From positions 576,001-640,000 of the forward strand of contig OZ244717.1 in NCBI GenBank assembly GCA_965218975.1: 64,000 nucleotides of DNA. Direction: 5' to 3'. Made by a program: the position numbers and the translations under genes. How positions within the stretch are numbered: the first letter of the stretch is position 1; each line of letters begins with the position of its first letter. A model generated the notes under the pieces. It did not search any database. It was not told the DNA's origin and worked only from the letters and a program-made list of their open reading frames with translations. The DNA comes from Candidatus Oxydemutatoraceae bacterium. GTDB lineage: Bacteria; Pseudomonadota; Gammaproteobacteria; Poriferisulfidales; Oxydemutatoraceae. Shown one piece after another: positions 11,965-52,854 of the stretch.

Positions 11965-12798
11965 ATGAAAATCATTTATCCTGAATTTTCTTTGCGCGAG
12001 CAGTATCAGTTTGGTGTGGCGATTATGGTACGTGACCGACCTTATTATGTGAAACGCTGTTTCAACAGTTTGAAGAAGAGCGATTTAACAGATACATTGA
12101 TCATTGTGCTTGACGATGCCAGCGAAAATACTGAAACGTTTGAATTTGTTAAGAATTTTTCCATACCGGATGTCCCAATCATCAAGATTTTGCTTTCAAA
12201 GCACATTAACTTTAATCTTCATAACCATCTGAAGCTAATGTGGGATATGCTATCTGAAAAATATGATTGTCAATACCTTTGCGTTTTAGATTCGGATATG
12301 ATTGTAAAACAACATTGGCTAAAAGCGCTTTACACGTTGCATGAAAAGGGTAAGCAAAAACACGGTAAGTGTATTGTTAGCGGTTTTAACAATTGTTCAC
12401 GTCGTGTAATATCATGCTCTAAAGAATATCGTGTTACGCCTGTACTTGGCGGCGCAAATATGTTTTTCGGTGCGCTGCTATACCACCAAATGGTCAGATA
12501 TTGTTTATGCAATTTTTGGGATGAACATTTGTGTAAAGCGGTTCAGTCTAGCGTTAAACTGCTTATTACTCACCCTTCTGTCTGCCAGCATATCGGGAAA
12601 CAAGGTTTGTTTTCCGGAGGAAATTTCAAATTCGACTTTGCGTTAGATTACTCATGGGCCGACACTATTTGCTACTCTCCGTTCTATCTGTGTAGGGGGT
12701 ATTGGCCTATGCCGTTAAGTTTTTATAAAAGTAAATTTTTTAGCTGGTTGTATAGTGCCGGATACATATGGGACTCACGGCACGATTCGAAAAGGTGA
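11965..12798 (+). CDS. Glycosyltransferase family 2-like protein; C-terminus supplied by an IS end
   Basis: IIVLDDAS, LDSD (DxD) and QHIG motifs; last ~16 codons lie within the IS end starting at 12749. Confidence 0.75.
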   Translation: MKIIYPEFSLREQYQFGVAIMVRDRPYYVKRCFNSLKKSDLTDTLIIVLDDASENTETFEFVKNFSIPDVPIIKILLSKHINFNLHNHLKLMWDMLSEKYDCQYLCVLDSDMIVKQHWLKALYTLHEKGKQKHGKCIVSGFNNCSRRVISCSKEYRVTPVLGGANMFFGALLYHQMVRYCLCNFWDEHLCKAVQSSVKLLITHPSVCQHIGKQGLFSGGNFKFDFALDYSWADTICYSPFYLCRGYWPMPLSFYKSKFFSWLYSAGYIWDSRHDSKR

Positions 12799-12885
12799 CC
12801 GATATGCAATATCAGCACATTGGCCACCGCATCAAAGGTTTCTATATGAGCCTGTTTAACCTCAAAGATAGAGGCTCATGAGCAC
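12749..12885 (+). mobile_element. Left end of IS481-like element type A (relic)
   Basis: TGTATAGTGCCGGATACATATGGGACTC..., near-identical over ~100 bp to the reverse complement of 51137-51239; contains transposase start MQYQHIGHRIKGFY. Confidence 0.8.
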
Positions 12886-12934
12886 TGCATAAGCTCAGAA
12901 ACATTTGGCACTCCTGCCGACAGGAGGAGAAGCC

Positions 12935-14160
12935 TTGCAGGTCCGACATATAGGTTACCGAATCCGGGGGTTTCCCCGGGTCGCTAAAATCGGGCATAGT
13001 TGGGATACTATGACTTACGATGCAAAACAACGACTCAAAATTCTCACCTTCCAGGAAAACCATGGCATGGCCGCTGCCTGCGATGCATTCAAGATCGGTT
13101 GCCGTACCTTGTATCGGTGGCGGCAGACCTTGAGGGAAGCCGGACACAACGCAGCGGCACTGGCGCCGCGTTCGACCCGCACCGCATCGCCGACGGCAGA
13201 CGCGGCGCCCGCCCGGTTTGATGCAAGCAATCCGTCGTCTGCGCGAGCAGTATCCGAACTTAGGTAAACAGCCGGTGCAGAAGTTGCTTGAGCTGTAGTG
13301 CGAGCGCCACGGCCTAGCCAACCCCAGCGTCTCGACTATCGGGCGCATCATCGCCGCAGCCCCGATAAGATGCGTCGTATCCCGCAGCACCTCAATGCCC
13401 GCGGCCGGCGCCGACCGTACCGCTGGGTCAACAGGTAAAGTCTTTGAGCTGATGAAACCGTTTTGTGTTTGTTGGTGGATTGTCGGCAAGGTGCCTGTCA
13501 TCCATGACGCGACTGGGTTCTGTCAACAAGCCCCAGCCCCGACATCCTTGTCGGGTCGTTCACCGCTGAAAACCAATTGGTTTTCCGAGCGCGTCTCACC
13601 CATGACGAGACTTGGTTCTGTCAATGAGCGCCAGCCCCGACGTCCTTGTCGGATCGTTCGCCGCTGAAAACCGATCGGTTTTCCGGGCGCGTCTCACCCA
13701 CCGCTACGTGTTCACCTTCATTGACCCGCGCTCGCGCGTTGCGTTTGCGTGGGCTTCCACTACCCGCAGCAGTCGGCGCAGCGCACACGCCCTGCGGCTG
13801 TTGTGTGAACTGGTGCCGAAACCGATCAACTATATTTTGTCCGACAACGGCTCGGAGTTTATGAAGGACTTCGAGACCGAGTTGAAACAGCGCCGGACCA
13901 CCCACTGGTGGACCTATCCGAAGTCACCAAAGATGAACGCGCACGTCGAGCGCTTCAACCGCAGCTTGCAGGAATCATTCACGGACTACCGCGCAGCTTC
14001 TTTGCGAGAAGCTCCTGTTCATTGATATGGCCCCTGCTTTAACCGGGAATTGGTGCAATGGCTGGTGTTTTACAACACCCAACGCCCCACCATTCACTGG
14101 GGTTGCAATCCCCGATACAATCGCTCCTGACTCACCACCCGGAGTGCCAAATGTTATGGA
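12935..14160 (+). pseudogene. IS481-family transposase pseudogene
   Basis: HTH AACDAFKIGCRTLYRW, YPNLGK, rve motifs RYVFTFID, LSDNGSEF, PKMNAHVERFNRS spread over several frames, with a stop and a repeat insertion. Confidence 0.85.
13436..13699 (+). repeat. B-A-A' repeat cassette (partial B spacer plus two 98-bp units)
   Basis: 13504-13601 and 13602-13699 are reverse-complement copies of the unit arrayed at 49469-50907; 13436-13503 matches part of the B spacer. Confidence 0.93.
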
Positions 14161-14195
14161 CCTATACAGCATCGTACACGCTGAATCAATGTGCT

Positions 14196-48101: not shown

Positions 48102-48959
48102 TTACCTTCCCGGAAAATTTCCAATGGCGATAGAAGAACGCCAAAGTCCGAATAAAAGGATGCTGATCCAAACAGTGGCGACCCAACCGCCCAAGACATC
48201 GGTACCGAGCCACGCGGATGCCGAATCGCCCGGAGACGTGAGATACTGAAACAGCTTGAGGCTGAACACCATGGCTGCATGTGCGCCGATGCAAAGTGCC
48301 AAACAATTAAAACGCAGCCGCAACATACCGAGGCCGAGACCGACTAAAAACAACAGACAAAGGCGCGGCATCTGCTCAGCCCACTGAGTAGGCATTTCAA
48401 GCACAGCATCAATCAGCAGTACCCATCCTCCGTCCCATTGGCCGTTCAACATCGGCCCGGGCGCGGGGTTGAGGAAATGTATCCCCGCGTAGAACAGAGC
48501 CGAAGCCACCAGCGGCGCCCGGGACCGGGATGTCCGGGACAGTAGCAGACCACGAAAATATAGTTCCTCCACTGCGGCCACAATCATTGCGCTCGTCAGG
48601 TATGTCGCGATTCGGTAGCCTAGTTCGGAATTCCGTTCCCACGGATCAACCATCATGCGCGCATCCAGTATCAGCAAAAAAATCCACCAGGGTGTCAACA
48701 GTGCAACCGTAACCGCAAAGGTCGATAGTGTTTGCACCAGAAAAGATCCGACATTGGTTTGCAGACCGAGGGCACTACGGCTGACCCGCCGGCGTGCCCA
48801 GAATGCGAGGACTATTACAGCGGTCAGTAATGCGCCGTATCTGACGAATTTATGATGCGGAACCGGCGGCAGCCACAACGCGTATATTAAACCCCATAGA
48901 AAGGCCCCGCCTGCCAACGCAACGAGAAAGAGCAAAGAGTAAACCCAAAAATTGCGCAT
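48102..48959 (-). CDS. CPBP (CAAX/Abi) intramembrane glutamic endopeptidase
   Basis: EELYFRG, FYAGIH, IGAHA; multiple TMs. Confidence 0.85.
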   Translation of the reverse strand: MRNFWVYSLLFLVALAGGAFLWGLIYALWLPPVPHHKFVRYGALLTAVIVLAFWARRRVSRSALGLQTNVGSFLVQTLSTFAVTVALLTPWWIFLLILDARMMVDPWERNSELGYRIATYLTSAMIVAAVEELYFRGLLLSRTSRSRAPLVASALFYAGIHFLNPAPGPMLNGQWDGGWVLLIDAVLEMPTQWAEQMPRLCLLFLVGLGLGMLRLRFNCLALCIGAHAAMVFSLKLFQYLTSPGDSASAWLGTDVLGGWVATVWISILLFGLWRSSIAIGNFPGR

Positions 48960-49468
48960 GAGCGGCTAACTCACTTTATTCTATCCGGGCATGCAACAGC
49001 GAAAAGCAATAGAGTTGATAGAGCATGCCGGTTTAAATGTCAATGAGATCATCTTGCGCAAGTTTGAGTTTCTTTGCTCGCGCTTAAAGATATTAGAAGG
49101 GCACACTCTTTGTCGACCCGGTAGCTGTTTGTGATGATGCGCCATAGATAAGTTTCTGTTATACGTGCCCGGATACCATACCGGATTTTGGACCTAAGAA
49201 AGTAACATTAATAATCTAGTCTACTCCAAAGACGGCAGACGTCACATTCTATTTGATGCGAGCCGTATGGAAGCAAAAGCCGGAGGTGATGTCTTGGATG
49301 GGAAACCAATCTTGTCAGGCAACACAACATTAAGCGAGCTTAAATTACTTGCGCTAGAAACTGTACGATGCCACCCTAAATGGGATTTTTGAAGGGCTTC
49401 GGGGGAAGCGTTCGGCAGTAACATTCGGATCGGTGCTTTCTGTCCGTTGCCGGCATGAGGACGGTGCA

Positions 49469-50931
49469 GGGTGAGACGCGCCCGGAAAACCAATTGGTTT
49501 TCAGCGGTGAACGACCCGACAAGGATGTCGGGGCTGGGGCTTGTTGACAGAACCCAGTCGCGTCATGGGTGAGACGCGCCCGGAAAACCAATTGGTTTTC
49601 AGCGGTGAACGACCCGACAAGGATGTCGGGGCTGGGGCTTGTTGACAGAACCCAGTCGCGTCATGGATGACAGGCACTTTGCCGACAATCCGGCACAATC
49701 CGCCGAAAATCCACCAACAAACACAAAACGGTTTCATCAGCTCAAAGATTTTATTGCTGCCGAGATTCGGATAAGCTTGGCGCAGGGTGAGACGCGCCCG
49801 GAAAACCGATCGGTTTTCAGCGGCGAACGACCCGACAAGGACGTCGGGGCTGGCGTTCATTAACAGAACCAAGTCTCGTCATGGGTGAGACGCGCCCGGA
49901 AAACCAATTGGTTTTCAGCGGTGAACGACCCGACAAGGATGTCGGGGCTGGGGCTTGTTGACAGAACCCAGTCGCGTCATGGATGACAGGCACTTTGCCG
50001 ACAATCCGGCACAATCCGCCGAAAATCCGCCAACAAACACAAAACGGTTTCATCAGCTCAAAGATTTTATTGCTGCCGAGATTCGGATAAGCCTGGCGCA
50101 GGGTGAGACGCGCCCGGAAAACCAATTGGTTTTCAGCGGTGAACGACCCGACACGGACGTCGGGGCTGGGGCTTGTTGACAGAACCCAGTCGCGTCATGG
50201 GTGAGACGCGCCCGGAAAACCAATTGGTTTTCAGCGGTGAACGACCCGACAAGGACGTCGGGGCTGGGGCTTGTTGACAGAACCCAGTCGCGTCATGGAT
50301 GACAGGCACTTTGCCGACAATCCGGCACAATCCGCCGAAAATCCGGCAACAAACACAAAACGGTTTCATCAGCTCAAAGATTTTATTGCTGCCGAGATTC
50401 GGATAAGCCTGGCGCAGGGTGAGACGCGCCTGGAAAACCGATCGGTTTTCAGCGGCGAACGACCCGACAAGGACGTCGGGGCTGGCGTTCATTAACAGAA
50501 CCAAGTCTCGTCATGGGTGAGACGCGCCCGGAAAACCAATTGGTTTTCAGCGGTGAACGACCCGACAAGGACGTCGGGGCTGGGGCTTGTTGACAGAACC
50601 CAGTCGCGTCATGGGTGAGACGCGCCCGGAAAACCGATCGGTTTTCAGCGGTGAACGACCCGACAAGGACGTCGGGGCTGGGGCTTGTTGACAGAACCCA
50701 GTCGCGTCATGGACGACAGGCACTTTGCTGAAAATCCACCAACAAACACAAAACGGTTTCATCAGCTCAAAGATTTTATTGCTGCCGAGATTCGGATAAG
50801 CCTGGCGCAGGGTGAGACGCGCCTGGAAAACCGATCGGTTTTCAGCGGCGAACGACCCGACACGGACGTCGGGGCTGGCACTCATTAATAGAACCAAGTT
50901 TCGTCATGGACGACAGGCACTTTGCTGACAA
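49469..50931 (-). repeat. Higher-order tandem array: ten 98-bp structured A units with four 120/99-bp B spacers
   Basis: A units start at 49469, 49567, 49785, 49883, 50101, 50199, 50417, 50515, 50613, 50810; B at 49665, 49981, 50297 (120 bp) and 50711 (99 bp); partial B at 50908. Confidence 0.97.
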
Positions 50932-51239
50932 CCCGCTGGCGCCTCTTACGCGGCGCTTTGCCGCGATCATGTAAGGCGCTGAGGCCAATGCGGCGATAAC
51001 GCCGACGCCAGCGGTACAAAGTACTGCGACCGATCTTAAATGCGTTCGGGAGTTACAACCCTCCCAAAATAATAGGGCATCATATTTCTGTTGAGCCGTT
51101 GTGTTCATAATAGCCTCTATTTTTGAAGCAAAATTGGCTCATATAGAAACCTTTGATGCGGTGGCCGATGTGCTGATATTGCATATCGGTTACCTTTTCG
51201 AGTCGTGCCGTGAGTCCCATATGTATCTGGCACTATACA
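50932..51239 (-). mobile_element. IS481-like type A left end with frameshifted transposase N-terminus
   Basis: Ends ...CACTATACA at 51239; minus-strand fragments MQYQHIGHRIKGFY, MNTTAQQKYDALLFWE, AFKIGRSTLYRWRRRY. Confidence 0.85.
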
Positions 51240-51268
51240 TGATACGCTTGTAAAATGGAGGTGTTTTT

Positions 51269-52213
51269 ATGAAAAAAAGCAAATACAGTAACACGTTGAG
51301 CCTGTTTAATGCTATGAAAAAGTTTCCAACAAATGAGCAGGCTACCAAACATTTGGAAATAGTGCGTTGGGGAGGCAAGGCAAAGTGCCTATATTGTTTA
51401 ACGCGCAATAAAATATCAGCGCGTAAAACCATAGGTCGCACGGCTGGACAATATCGTTGTAATTGTTGCCACAAAGAATTTACGGTGCGGACTGGCACTA
51501 TCTTTGAAAAATCTCATTTACCATTGAATAAATGGATGTTTGCTATTTACTTAGTACAAACTGCACGCAAGGGCATATCATCGTTACAATTAAGTAAAGA
51601 ATTAGGCATTACTCAAAAGACAGCGTGGTTTATGCTTCACCGTATCCGCGAGGCGTGTAAAGGTGATTTGACCAAACTAACCGGCATTGTAGAGATAGAC
51701 GAAACCTATATTGGCGGGAAAGAAAAAAACAAACATAAAAACAAGCGATTAAAGGCTGCCCGTGGAGCAGTTGGTAAAACTGCTATAGATGGTATGCGTG
51801 AACGCAAAGGCAAGGTTGAAGCAATGCTGATTGATAACACAGACCAACATACACTACAAACGGCGATTCACCGCAATATCAATGTCGGTAGTCAGTTATA
51901 CACCGATGATCATCGCGGTTATGCTGGATTGGATGGCGTGCTATATCAGCATAAAAGTGTTAAGCATTCCGCTAACGAATATGTAAATGGTATGGCGCAT
52001 ACCAACGGCATAGAAAGTGTGTGGGCGGTGTTAAAGCGCGGCGTTAATGGGACCTATCACAACATTACCACCAAACATTTACAGCGTTATGTTGGTGAAT
52101 TTACGTTTCGGTTGAATGAGGGCAACGTTGAGCGACACACAAAACGACGCATAGACAGTGTGCTTGCGGGGGCGATAGACAAACGATTAACATACAAAAG
52201 GCTAATATCATAA
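51269..52213 (+). CDS. IS1595-family transposase
   Basis: Zn ribbon CLYC..CNCC, GTIFEKSHLPL, KGISSLQL, EIDETYIGG, YTDD, HTNGIESVW, RLTYKRL. Confidence 0.93.
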   Translation: MKKSKYSNTLSLFNAMKKFPTNEQATKHLEIVRWGGKAKCLYCLTRNKISARKTIGRTAGQYRCNCCHKEFTVRTGTIFEKSHLPLNKWMFAIYLVQTARKGISSLQLSKELGITQKTAWFMLHRIREACKGDLTKLTGIVEIDETYIGGKEKNKHKNKRLKAARGAVGKTAIDGMRERKGKVEAMLIDNTDQHTLQTAIHRNINVGSQLYTDDHRGYAGLDGVLYQHKSVKHSANEYVNGMAHTNGIESVWAVLKRGVNGTYHNITTKHLQRYVGEFTFRLNEGNVERHTKRRIDSVLAGAIDKRLTYKRLIS

Positions 52214-52854
52214 TGCCTTCTATTACCGCACAACAGTTTAATACTGCATTGCAGATTATATTGGATGTAAAACCTATTACCCCGATAGGGCGTATCGCTA
52301 ATTATATGAAAGAAACCAAGTATCCCAATGGGTTACATGCAGGTGATGATGGCCGGATACTTGGTATATGGGTTATGGGCAATAACTATAAAGTTAAATC
52401 AGACTATTATGGTGGTTATCCTGCTGGTTATCTGAGGCGCATTAAAGCATTATTCCCTGACAAGCATAATCCCTTGCATTTATTTTCCGGTAAAGTTGAG
52501 TTGGATATTTTGGGGGGGGATACAGTAGATATGGATGAGGAATTAGAGCCAACATTTATTGATGATGCGCAAACATTAGTAAATGTACCGATAGAAGAAT
52601 ACGATTTGATATTGGCTGATCCGCCATACTCGGTTGAAGACGCAGACCATTATAAACCGACAATGGTTAAGCGAAATAAAGTTATGAGTTCATTGGGCAA
52701 ACGGGCAGTAAAAGGAACTCATGTGGTATGGTTAGACCAAGTGTTACCGATGTATCGTAAAGATCAATGGGATATGATTGGACTGATAGGAATGGTTAAA
52801 AGCACTAATCACAGATTTAGAGTTATAAGCATTTTTGAGAAATGCGCAAGTTAG
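52213..52854 (+). CDS. Compact amino (probably N6-adenine) DNA methyltransferase
   Basis: Motif I-like LHLFSG, TVD, DDAQ, motif IV ADPPY; 213 aa. Confidence 0.75.
   Translation: MPSITAQQFNTALQIILDVKPITPIGRIANYMKETKYPNGLHAGDDGRILGIWVMGNNYKVKSDYYGGYPAGYLRRIKALFPDKHNPLHLFSGKVELDILGGDTVDMDEELEPTFIDDAQTLVNVPIEEYDLILADPPYSVEDADHYKPTMVKRNKVMSSLGKRAVKGTHVVWLDQVLPMYRKDQWDMIGLIGMVKSTNHRFRVISIFEKCAS

Follow-up and report, generated by a model that had tools for sequence, protein, structure and literature searches.

What does a tandem array of a 98-bp, hairpin-rich unit represent in the genome of Candidatus Oxydemutatoraceae bacterium: an undescribed mobile or RNA system, or the rearranged remnant of a family that is already known? 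The question is raised by positions 49469-50931 of a stretch of 64,000 nucleotides (hereafter the window; coordinates refer to it unless given as genome positions or in kb along the genome). The sequence-only reading of this locus had proposed a REPIN/MITE-like repeat or an ncRNA concatemer that parasitises IS481-like elements and amplifies together with a captured piece of transposase, possibly by rolling-circle or reiterative copying. In our analysis the link to IS481 and the captured gene piece stand, and the REPIN, RNA and rolling-circle readings are not supported.

The array and its IS481-family carrier

The array is far above chance expectation. In the BLAST-based unit map of the assembly it consists of ten A units of exactly 98 bp each (49469..50907, minus strand; six of the A type, one mixed and three of a type designated A'), with four B linkers of 120, 120, 120 and 99 bp between them and a partial B-like stub after the last unit. 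Tandem Repeats Finder reported a 98-bp period at 49469-49670 (99% matches), a higher-order period of 316 bp at 49466-50618 (3.6 copies, 95% matches) and an 11-bp period within a B linker (49997-50036). The first three 316-bp periods have 303-310 of their 316 bases in common. The unit order that had been read by eye, A A B A' A B A A B A' A A B(-21) A' b, was reproduced by the unit map, and the 316-bp A-A-B period was found by the map and by Tandem Repeats Finder alike.

The first B linker (49665..49784, minus strand) contains natural transposase codons (LRQAYPNLGSNKIFELMKPFC), followed by a foreign stretch, pre-A, which contains 10-11-nt repeats and ends in ..GTGCCTGTCATCC. The other three linkers are located at 49981-50100, 50297-50416 and 50711-50809 on the same strand. 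All four are copies of one another (97.5-100% identity), and unique spacers of the CRISPR type are absent, in agreement with the earlier statement that this is not a CRISPR array. The stub (50908..50931, minus strand) is a piece of pre-A, the reverse complement of GGACGACAGGCACTTTGCTGACAA, which in transposase sense forms the connection between the N-terminal gene part and the first A; the same joint is present in other relics.

It seems extremely improbable that the array, or its copy number, is an artefact of assembly. Near-identical repeats easily collapse or expand, and the contigs of four sequencing runs, from four studies, are all short, with none of them spanning the array, such that its copy number is given here as assembled. 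The same architecture nevertheless recurs at 96 loci of a single-contig genome, with a 316-bp period again at 1056 kb, and the runs of the four studies contain both the units and the relic ends, the word depth in run X1 being tens to hundreds of times that of the flanks. Parts of the stretch were contained in 14 sequencing-run rows from nine studies, with no RNA run among them.

The whole array is enclosed by a relic of an IS481-family element, type A (49362..51239, transposase sense on the minus strand), as delimited by a motif search for terminal repeats, contig breaks and tblastn. Its right end (49362..49468, minus strand) holds the final codons of the transposase (HRPHAGNGQKAPI...HLGWHRT), which read into a terminal inverted repeat starting with TGTACGATGCC at 49362; this tail aligns in tblastn with residues 291-345 of homolog P0015 and has 95 blastn copies in the genome. 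The left end (50932..51239, minus strand) comprises a terminal inverted repeat ending in ..GGCACTATACA at 51239, a leader, N-terminal helix-turn-helix (HTH) codons and a frameshift. A 44-aa frame in it matches NF033577 (positions 30-61) and HTH_32, and 117 blastn copies were found in the genome.

In four runs, each from a different study, the contigs break off or diverge at 49361/2 and 51239/40, so that positions 49362 and 51239 can be taken as the ends of a repeated element. Only residues 1-91 and ~291-345 of a 350-aa homolog align with the relic, so the catalytic core has been lost, and the array starts where the N-terminal part of the transposase breaks off, as had been noticed from the letters. 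The relic is bounded by terminal inverted repeats at both ends, as expected for an IS481 element, and it combines both ends of the parent IS with the lack of a working transposase and a high copy number, as is characteristic of non-autonomous IS derivatives and MITEs. The focal element is an IS481 relic and not an active member of the family. No flanking target duplication was seen at this relic.

The left end of the relic adjoins a transposase-like open frame of 314 codons (51269-52213, plus strand), putatively of the ISXO2/IS1595 type. This frame is abutted by one of 213 codons (52213-52854, plus strand) that contains a DPPY motif typical of DNA methyltransferases. The frames 11965-12798 (plus strand) and 51190-51498 (minus strand) have the terminal peptide ..YIWDSRHDSKR in common, because each of them extends into the left terminal repeat belonging to an IS481 relic. 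The insertion has thus provided the host gene at 11965-12798 with a new 3' end.

Beyond the window, the genome (a single contig of 2,081,000 bp, 47.7% G+C, 99.4% complete) contains 326 BLAST matches to A, 305 of which are near full length. They are distributed over 96 loci of 1-12 units, spanning 54,504 bp in total (2.6% of the genome), and in 94 of the 96 arrays the units have a single orientation. A segment of an IS481 relic lies within 500 bp of 93 arrays; two of the remaining three are accompanied by right-end remnants and the third by pre-A only. The proposal that the repeat inhabits IS481-like elements thus holds for the genome at large. The transposase sense is on the leading strand for 60 arrays and on the lagging strand for 36, a weak bias (p 0.018).

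The carriers themselves are dead. Among the 128 fragments in the genome that match NF033577 the best scored 90.1 bits, against a cut-off of 224, which means that no intact copy is present, and an intact type-A transposase was not seen anywhere. Terminal repeats could be paired into 35 repeat-bounded relics of 378-2012 bp, and five of these 35 are flanked by exact 5-bp duplications, against 0.01 expected per pair. Enclosing 1 to 12 A units at each locus, the IS ends give the elements the layout of a leader and a tail around a variable tandem core. The genome is one in which an IS bloom was followed by complete decay of the IS481 family.

Either flank is identical over 12 nt in two relics about 38 kb apart (genome positions 841276-842098 and 879555-880374), suggesting that a relic was included in a segmental duplication.

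Intact IS481-type genes of 350-390 codons do occur in 10 of 18 genomes of the same family, and are at most 54% identical to the type-A core. The A unit itself gave no BLAST match in 40 relatives, and its covariance model none in 52 other genomes of the order. Exact-pattern scans of genome contigs (two patterns) and metagenome contigs (one pattern), collections from which records of the genome itself were possibly excluded, returned no match, and blastn of A plus B against plasmid and phage sequences also gave no match.

These observations argue against the self-moving, REPIN/MITE-like element that had been proposed: 95 of the 96 arrays reside in IS481 remnants, the units are direct repeats and not inverted pairs, and a RAYT/Y1 gene is lacking. 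The RAYT/Y1 HUH model PF01797 (Y1_Tnp) had no match in the genome at E<=0.01, with a positive control in 6 of 14 genomes. Reverse transcriptase PF00078 (RVT_1) likewise had none at that threshold, the control being positive in 3 of 14 genomes, and the absence of both RVT_1 and Y1 matches speaks against the suggested rolling-circle or reverse-transcriptase copying. The Y2 HUH model PF04986 gave no match, and its control was silent in all genomes.

A foreign block at fixed places in the transposase gene

What was inserted, and where, could be read from empty sites, i.e. relics that lack A at a given place and show the natural gene sequence. Such sites were found after B (at 211 kb), between the two core parts (279.7 kb and 1500.9 kb) and ahead of the tail (450.5 kb and 1500.8 kb). 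At the filled sites compared, A is always preceded by a pre-A stretch ending in ..GTGCCTGTCRTCC. Since none of these places has pre-A in its natural sequence, the insert comprises both pre-A (37+ nt) and the 98-bp A, a foreign block of ~135 bp or more (hereafter pre-A plus A). It occupies four or five fixed places in the type-A IS481 transposase gene.

One A-less relic (genome positions 1500778-1501395) has its N-terminal part joined directly to the end of core part 1 at the short shared run CCGCAACCG; this is an internal deletion by which the natural, unfilled junctions were preserved.

The arrangement is most complete in a fuller relic at genome positions 1,997,073-1,998,767. In transposase sense it starts with the left repeat, N-terminus, A, B, A and core part 1, and continues with A, core part 2, A, 9 bp, A, the C-terminal tail and the right repeat. 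Genome-wide, the A-to-A spacings fall into the classes 0, 9, 65, 99, 109-134, 254-256, 265-277, 361 and 391-395 bp, the long classes being successive segments of the transposase in their natural order. Given these discrete linker classes only six contexts are usual downstream of A, and indeed on its 3' side there is almost always another A, the 9-bp linker or the beginning of a gene segment, of which there are four.

B finds its place in this series as the stretch of gene that naturally links the HTH to the core, with pre-A added to it, by which B as an independent repeat was ruled out. In an uninterrupted relic (~211.2-211.35 kb) the B region reads ANLGSNKVFELMKPFCHRHQLLCPSVRTIARL, and the B stretch, which reads ANLGSNKVFELMKPFC there, is collinear with full-length IS481-family proteins. 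This alignment upholds the earlier claim that B encodes transposase sequence. The idea of a captured transposase piece likewise survives, in the form of a piece that was copied along with A to new places, in variable lengths. One such place lies in the window itself, in a second IS481-family relic of another type (type B; 12850..14190, plus strand; NF033577 positions 146-246, E 9e-22), the transposase gene of which is interrupted at 13436-13699 by a B tail and two A units. About 35 natural codons are missing at this insert in comparison with homologs.

The comparison of filled and empty sites defines the joints. Per filled site, 13 to ~55 nt of the gene have been replaced. Secondary copies bring an upstream donor flank of 7 to ~120 nt, natural B sequence included, and the 3' end of A is exact to the base in every one of them. 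Microhomology is found at the joints, with CGGAT, ATG and CTGCGCC at the left-hand ones and CC|TG at the right-hand ones. Of 225 non-tandem copies of A, 177 have TG immediately downstream (140 have TGC), and head-to-tail joints of A are likewise exact to the base (89 linkers of 0 bp). No target duplication was observed at the filled sites, and with 13-55 nt of the gene lost, simple cut-and-paste by a MITE with target duplication was ruled out. The joints are better explained by microhomology-mediated copying and unequal exchange than by reverse transcription or rolling-circle transfer.

A different view of the same joints is that pre-A plus A acts, or acted until recently, as a mobile hyperparasite living on IS481 transposase genes; it would copy itself from its fixed 3' end by target-primed reverse transcription or by rolling-circle/one-ended transposition, take along a variable upstream flank, insert before C|TG and kill the host IS. 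We regard this as unlikely, although the combination of a fixed 3' boundary, a 5' extent ranging from 7 to ~120 nt and small target deletions is what it would predict, as are the TG that comes next in 177 of the 225 non-tandem copies, the presence of a type-A-derived B tail inside a different IS481 type and the 89 base-exact head-to-tail linkers of 0 bp. Moreover, the end of pre-A resembles the end of A, and A therefore recreates its own preferred flank. The 99.4% complete, single-contig genome, however, lacks any RVT_1 or Y1_Tnp match, the arrays are confined to IS481 relics save for the one of 96 with pre-A only, and no copy was found in the other genomes or collections searched. The microhomology at both joints of an event is, in addition, what template switching predicts.

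Fold, spread and proposed history of the units

On the transposase strand the A unit had been proposed to contain three hairpins that a GACGCG/CGCGTC stem closes into a four-way junction. This structure is predicted for the A-type unit but not for A'. Folded as RNA, the A-type unit reaches -40.1 kcal/mol (z -3.8), with none of 200 shuffles as good, and as DNA it has a z of -3.9 on either strand; both strands of the unit fold equally well. The DNA fold of the A' unit is at z -1.4 to -1.5 and the four-way junction is not formed. In the majority A' type three pairs are broken. Among the 180 distinct units of the genome the pairs 7-88, 12-31 and 14-29 are formed in 30%, 29% and 49%, respectively, and hairpins 2 and 3 are retained in 96-100%.

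That the units form a concatemer of a structured ncRNA, processed to pieces of ~98 nt, had been one of the earlier suggestions, and the A-type fold, far better than its shuffles (z -3.8), is in its favour. We nevertheless consider it highly implausible. The covariance models of Rfam 15 gave no match at E<=1 in 48500-52000, and compensatory change, i.e. a pair with both sides changed, was found in none of 30 pairs (36 distinct units), with all five measures equal to those of shuffled controls. The majority A' type, with its three broken pairs, folds no better than shuffles, the two strands fold equally, and the covariance model detected no homolog in the 52 genomes of the order. Among the 180 distinct units a helix has changed on both sides at a single pair, 70-77, from CG to GC in three units.

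The differences between A' and A create the pairs 7-88, 12-31 and 14-29 or strengthen 41-46; the remaining ones leave the symmetry of the 18-bp palindrome intact (72/75) or fall on unpaired positions. That these changes all improve pairing or are neutral hints at selection or at a structure-dependent mechanism. Furthermore, the A type, with its closing stem and first hairpin intact, accounts for 34 of 77 units that directly precede another unit, and for only 8 of 112 units in other classified contexts. In the reading preferred below, the A type, which forms the four-way junction, is the variant that expands best.

Positions 72/75 (e.g. window 49490-49493) form the centre of the palindrome, and combine as G..C in 122, as A..T in 47 and otherwise in 11 of the 180 units. 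The centre is thus CGATCG or CAATTG, a symmetric double change that a hairpin with a loop of 2 or 4 nt does not need.

It could be argued from this centre that the palindromes of A are functional DNA sites, for instance for a dimeric nucleoid protein or one related to restriction-modification, and that the arrays are kept for that purpose. Within the loop 72/75 change together such that symmetry is kept, and the high retention of hairpins 2 and 3 (96-100%) would fit as well. We think this very unlikely, however, as the two states of 72/75 mark two sub-families, and maybe reflect one historical double change that was spread by copying. All copies lie in dead mobile elements, a partner protein was not identified, and the orientation bias is weak (60 versus 36 arrays, p 0.018).

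The relationships between units bear on how they spread. The nearest relative of a unit is in another array for 132 of 209 units, identical units are found in up to eight arrays, and the arrays at 1056 kb and in the window have the same 316-bp period, with units that are 94.6-96.8% identical. Together with the 5-bp duplications, these cross-array relatives and the shared period lead us to infer that composites already bearing A moved as units. Mosaic A/A' units are present and indicate conversion between copies; recA is intact.

Our preferred reading, to which we assign a probability of roughly 60%, is that the array represents non-coding material filling a dead, non-autonomous IS481 element, which carries a hairpin minisatellite and was spread in trans and reshaped afterwards. 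The block of pre-A and A would have entered once and then have been copied again, both inside single IS481 elements and from one to another, through template switching at microhomologies or through repair synthesis, each copy keeping the 3' end of A, carrying a variable upstream flank and replacing 13-55 nt of the gene. The crippled composite would presumably have been spread to ~100 loci by transposase acting in trans, supplied by copies that were still intact at the time and decayed later. Direct A copies may next have undergone RecA-dependent unequal exchange, gene conversion and slippage, by which gene segments may have been deleted and the tandem and higher-order arrays produced. In the window the catalytic core would have been lost and the string A - gene piece E2 (B) - A multiplied ~3.6-fold, yielding the 316-bp period, whose unit would consist of A (first junction), B and A (second junction). 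No cellular function would be needed.

Three observations are at odds with this minisatellite reading. Random template switching does not predict the fixed 3' boundary of A in secondary copies, and a site-specific step may be involved. Duplications flank only 5 of 35 relics, the focal one not being among them, and every A'/A difference is either favourable to pairing or neutral to it. As a minority reading, a mechanism that is site-specific or depends on structure is kept alive because the reuse of the A 3' end, the source of the block, the pairing-improving changes and the orientation bias remain odd. In its strongest form, which appears doubtful to us, pre-A plus A would be a parasite of a parasite, a small structured element specialised on IS481 transposase genes, that copied from a fixed 3' end before C|TG, took pieces of the host gene with it and silenced every IS481 copy of this genome, and the four-way junction of the derived A type would drive tandem amplification. 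A real mechanism might still lie behind two of these points, namely that one boundary was reused exactly and that the amplified sub-family changed in ways that improve its structure.

Relation to known systems

If the minisatellite reading holds, what appeared to be an undescribed system becomes a documented case of a dead IS turned minisatellite carrier. For annotation this implies that the ~100 repeat arrays of this genome should be regarded as IS481 relics instead of RNA genes or CRISPR-like arrays. The relics are also of use to the study of genome evolution, as a natural series of empty and filled sites in which hairpin-driven template switching can be followed in bacteria.

The elements share with the IS481-family IS and their MITE-like derivatives the terminal inverted repeats and a gene with HTH and DDE (rve) parts that reads into the right repeat, and also the short flanking duplications at some copies and the many decayed copies in a small genome. 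They differ in that no intact copy is present here, and in that one foreign hairpin block breaks up the gene at several fixed places. Typical MITEs are smaller than the relics described here, which at 378-2012 bp are above typical MITE size.

REP/BIME sequences and the REPIN-RAYT system are likewise short palindromic units that are clustered, of high copy number and restricted to one lineage. REPINs, however, are inverted pairs between host genes, whereas here direct repeats occur in IS relics and a Y1 (RAYT) gene is lacking.

Microhomology-mediated template switching has reportedly been reviewed as a process acting at hairpin-forming DNA. The 3-7 shared bases at its joints, its templated insertions with small deletions and the tandem duplications beside structure-forming DNA agree well with what is found here, whereas it would not lead one to expect that the same exact boundary, the 3' end of A, is used in many events.

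No bacterial IS481 derivative with internal tandem repeats was found in the literature. Among bacteria, the closest precedent to emerge was BrickBuilt, a MITE of Porphyromonas gingivalis that carries a minisatellite (Klein et al. 2015; PMC4596501). According to the passages of that report drawn on here, BrickBuilt is also species-limited, has a leader and a tail with inverted-repeat ends around a variable tandem core, and is present in many genomic copies (PMC4596501). The same passages describe a 23-nt unit without spacers, in 19 intergenic copies, whereas the present unit is 98 bp long, has three hairpins and occurs at 96 loci (PMC4596501). Unlike in BrickBuilt, as characterised there, pieces of transposase are interleaved with the units, giving rise to higher-order periods, and the parent IS family can be identified (PMC4596501).

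A parallel outside the bacteria is provided by the non-autonomous Helentrons of the Pacific oyster (Cg_HINE), which carry satellite-like central repeats, as far as the sections of the source considered here describe them (PMC7492417). In these, as in the present case, arrays were dispersed by riding on non-autonomous transposons (PMC7492417). Cg_HINE are eukaryotic rolling-circle elements in the same account, whereas the host described here is a bacterium in which no HUH gene was found, and the carrier is an IS of the DDE type (PMC7492417).
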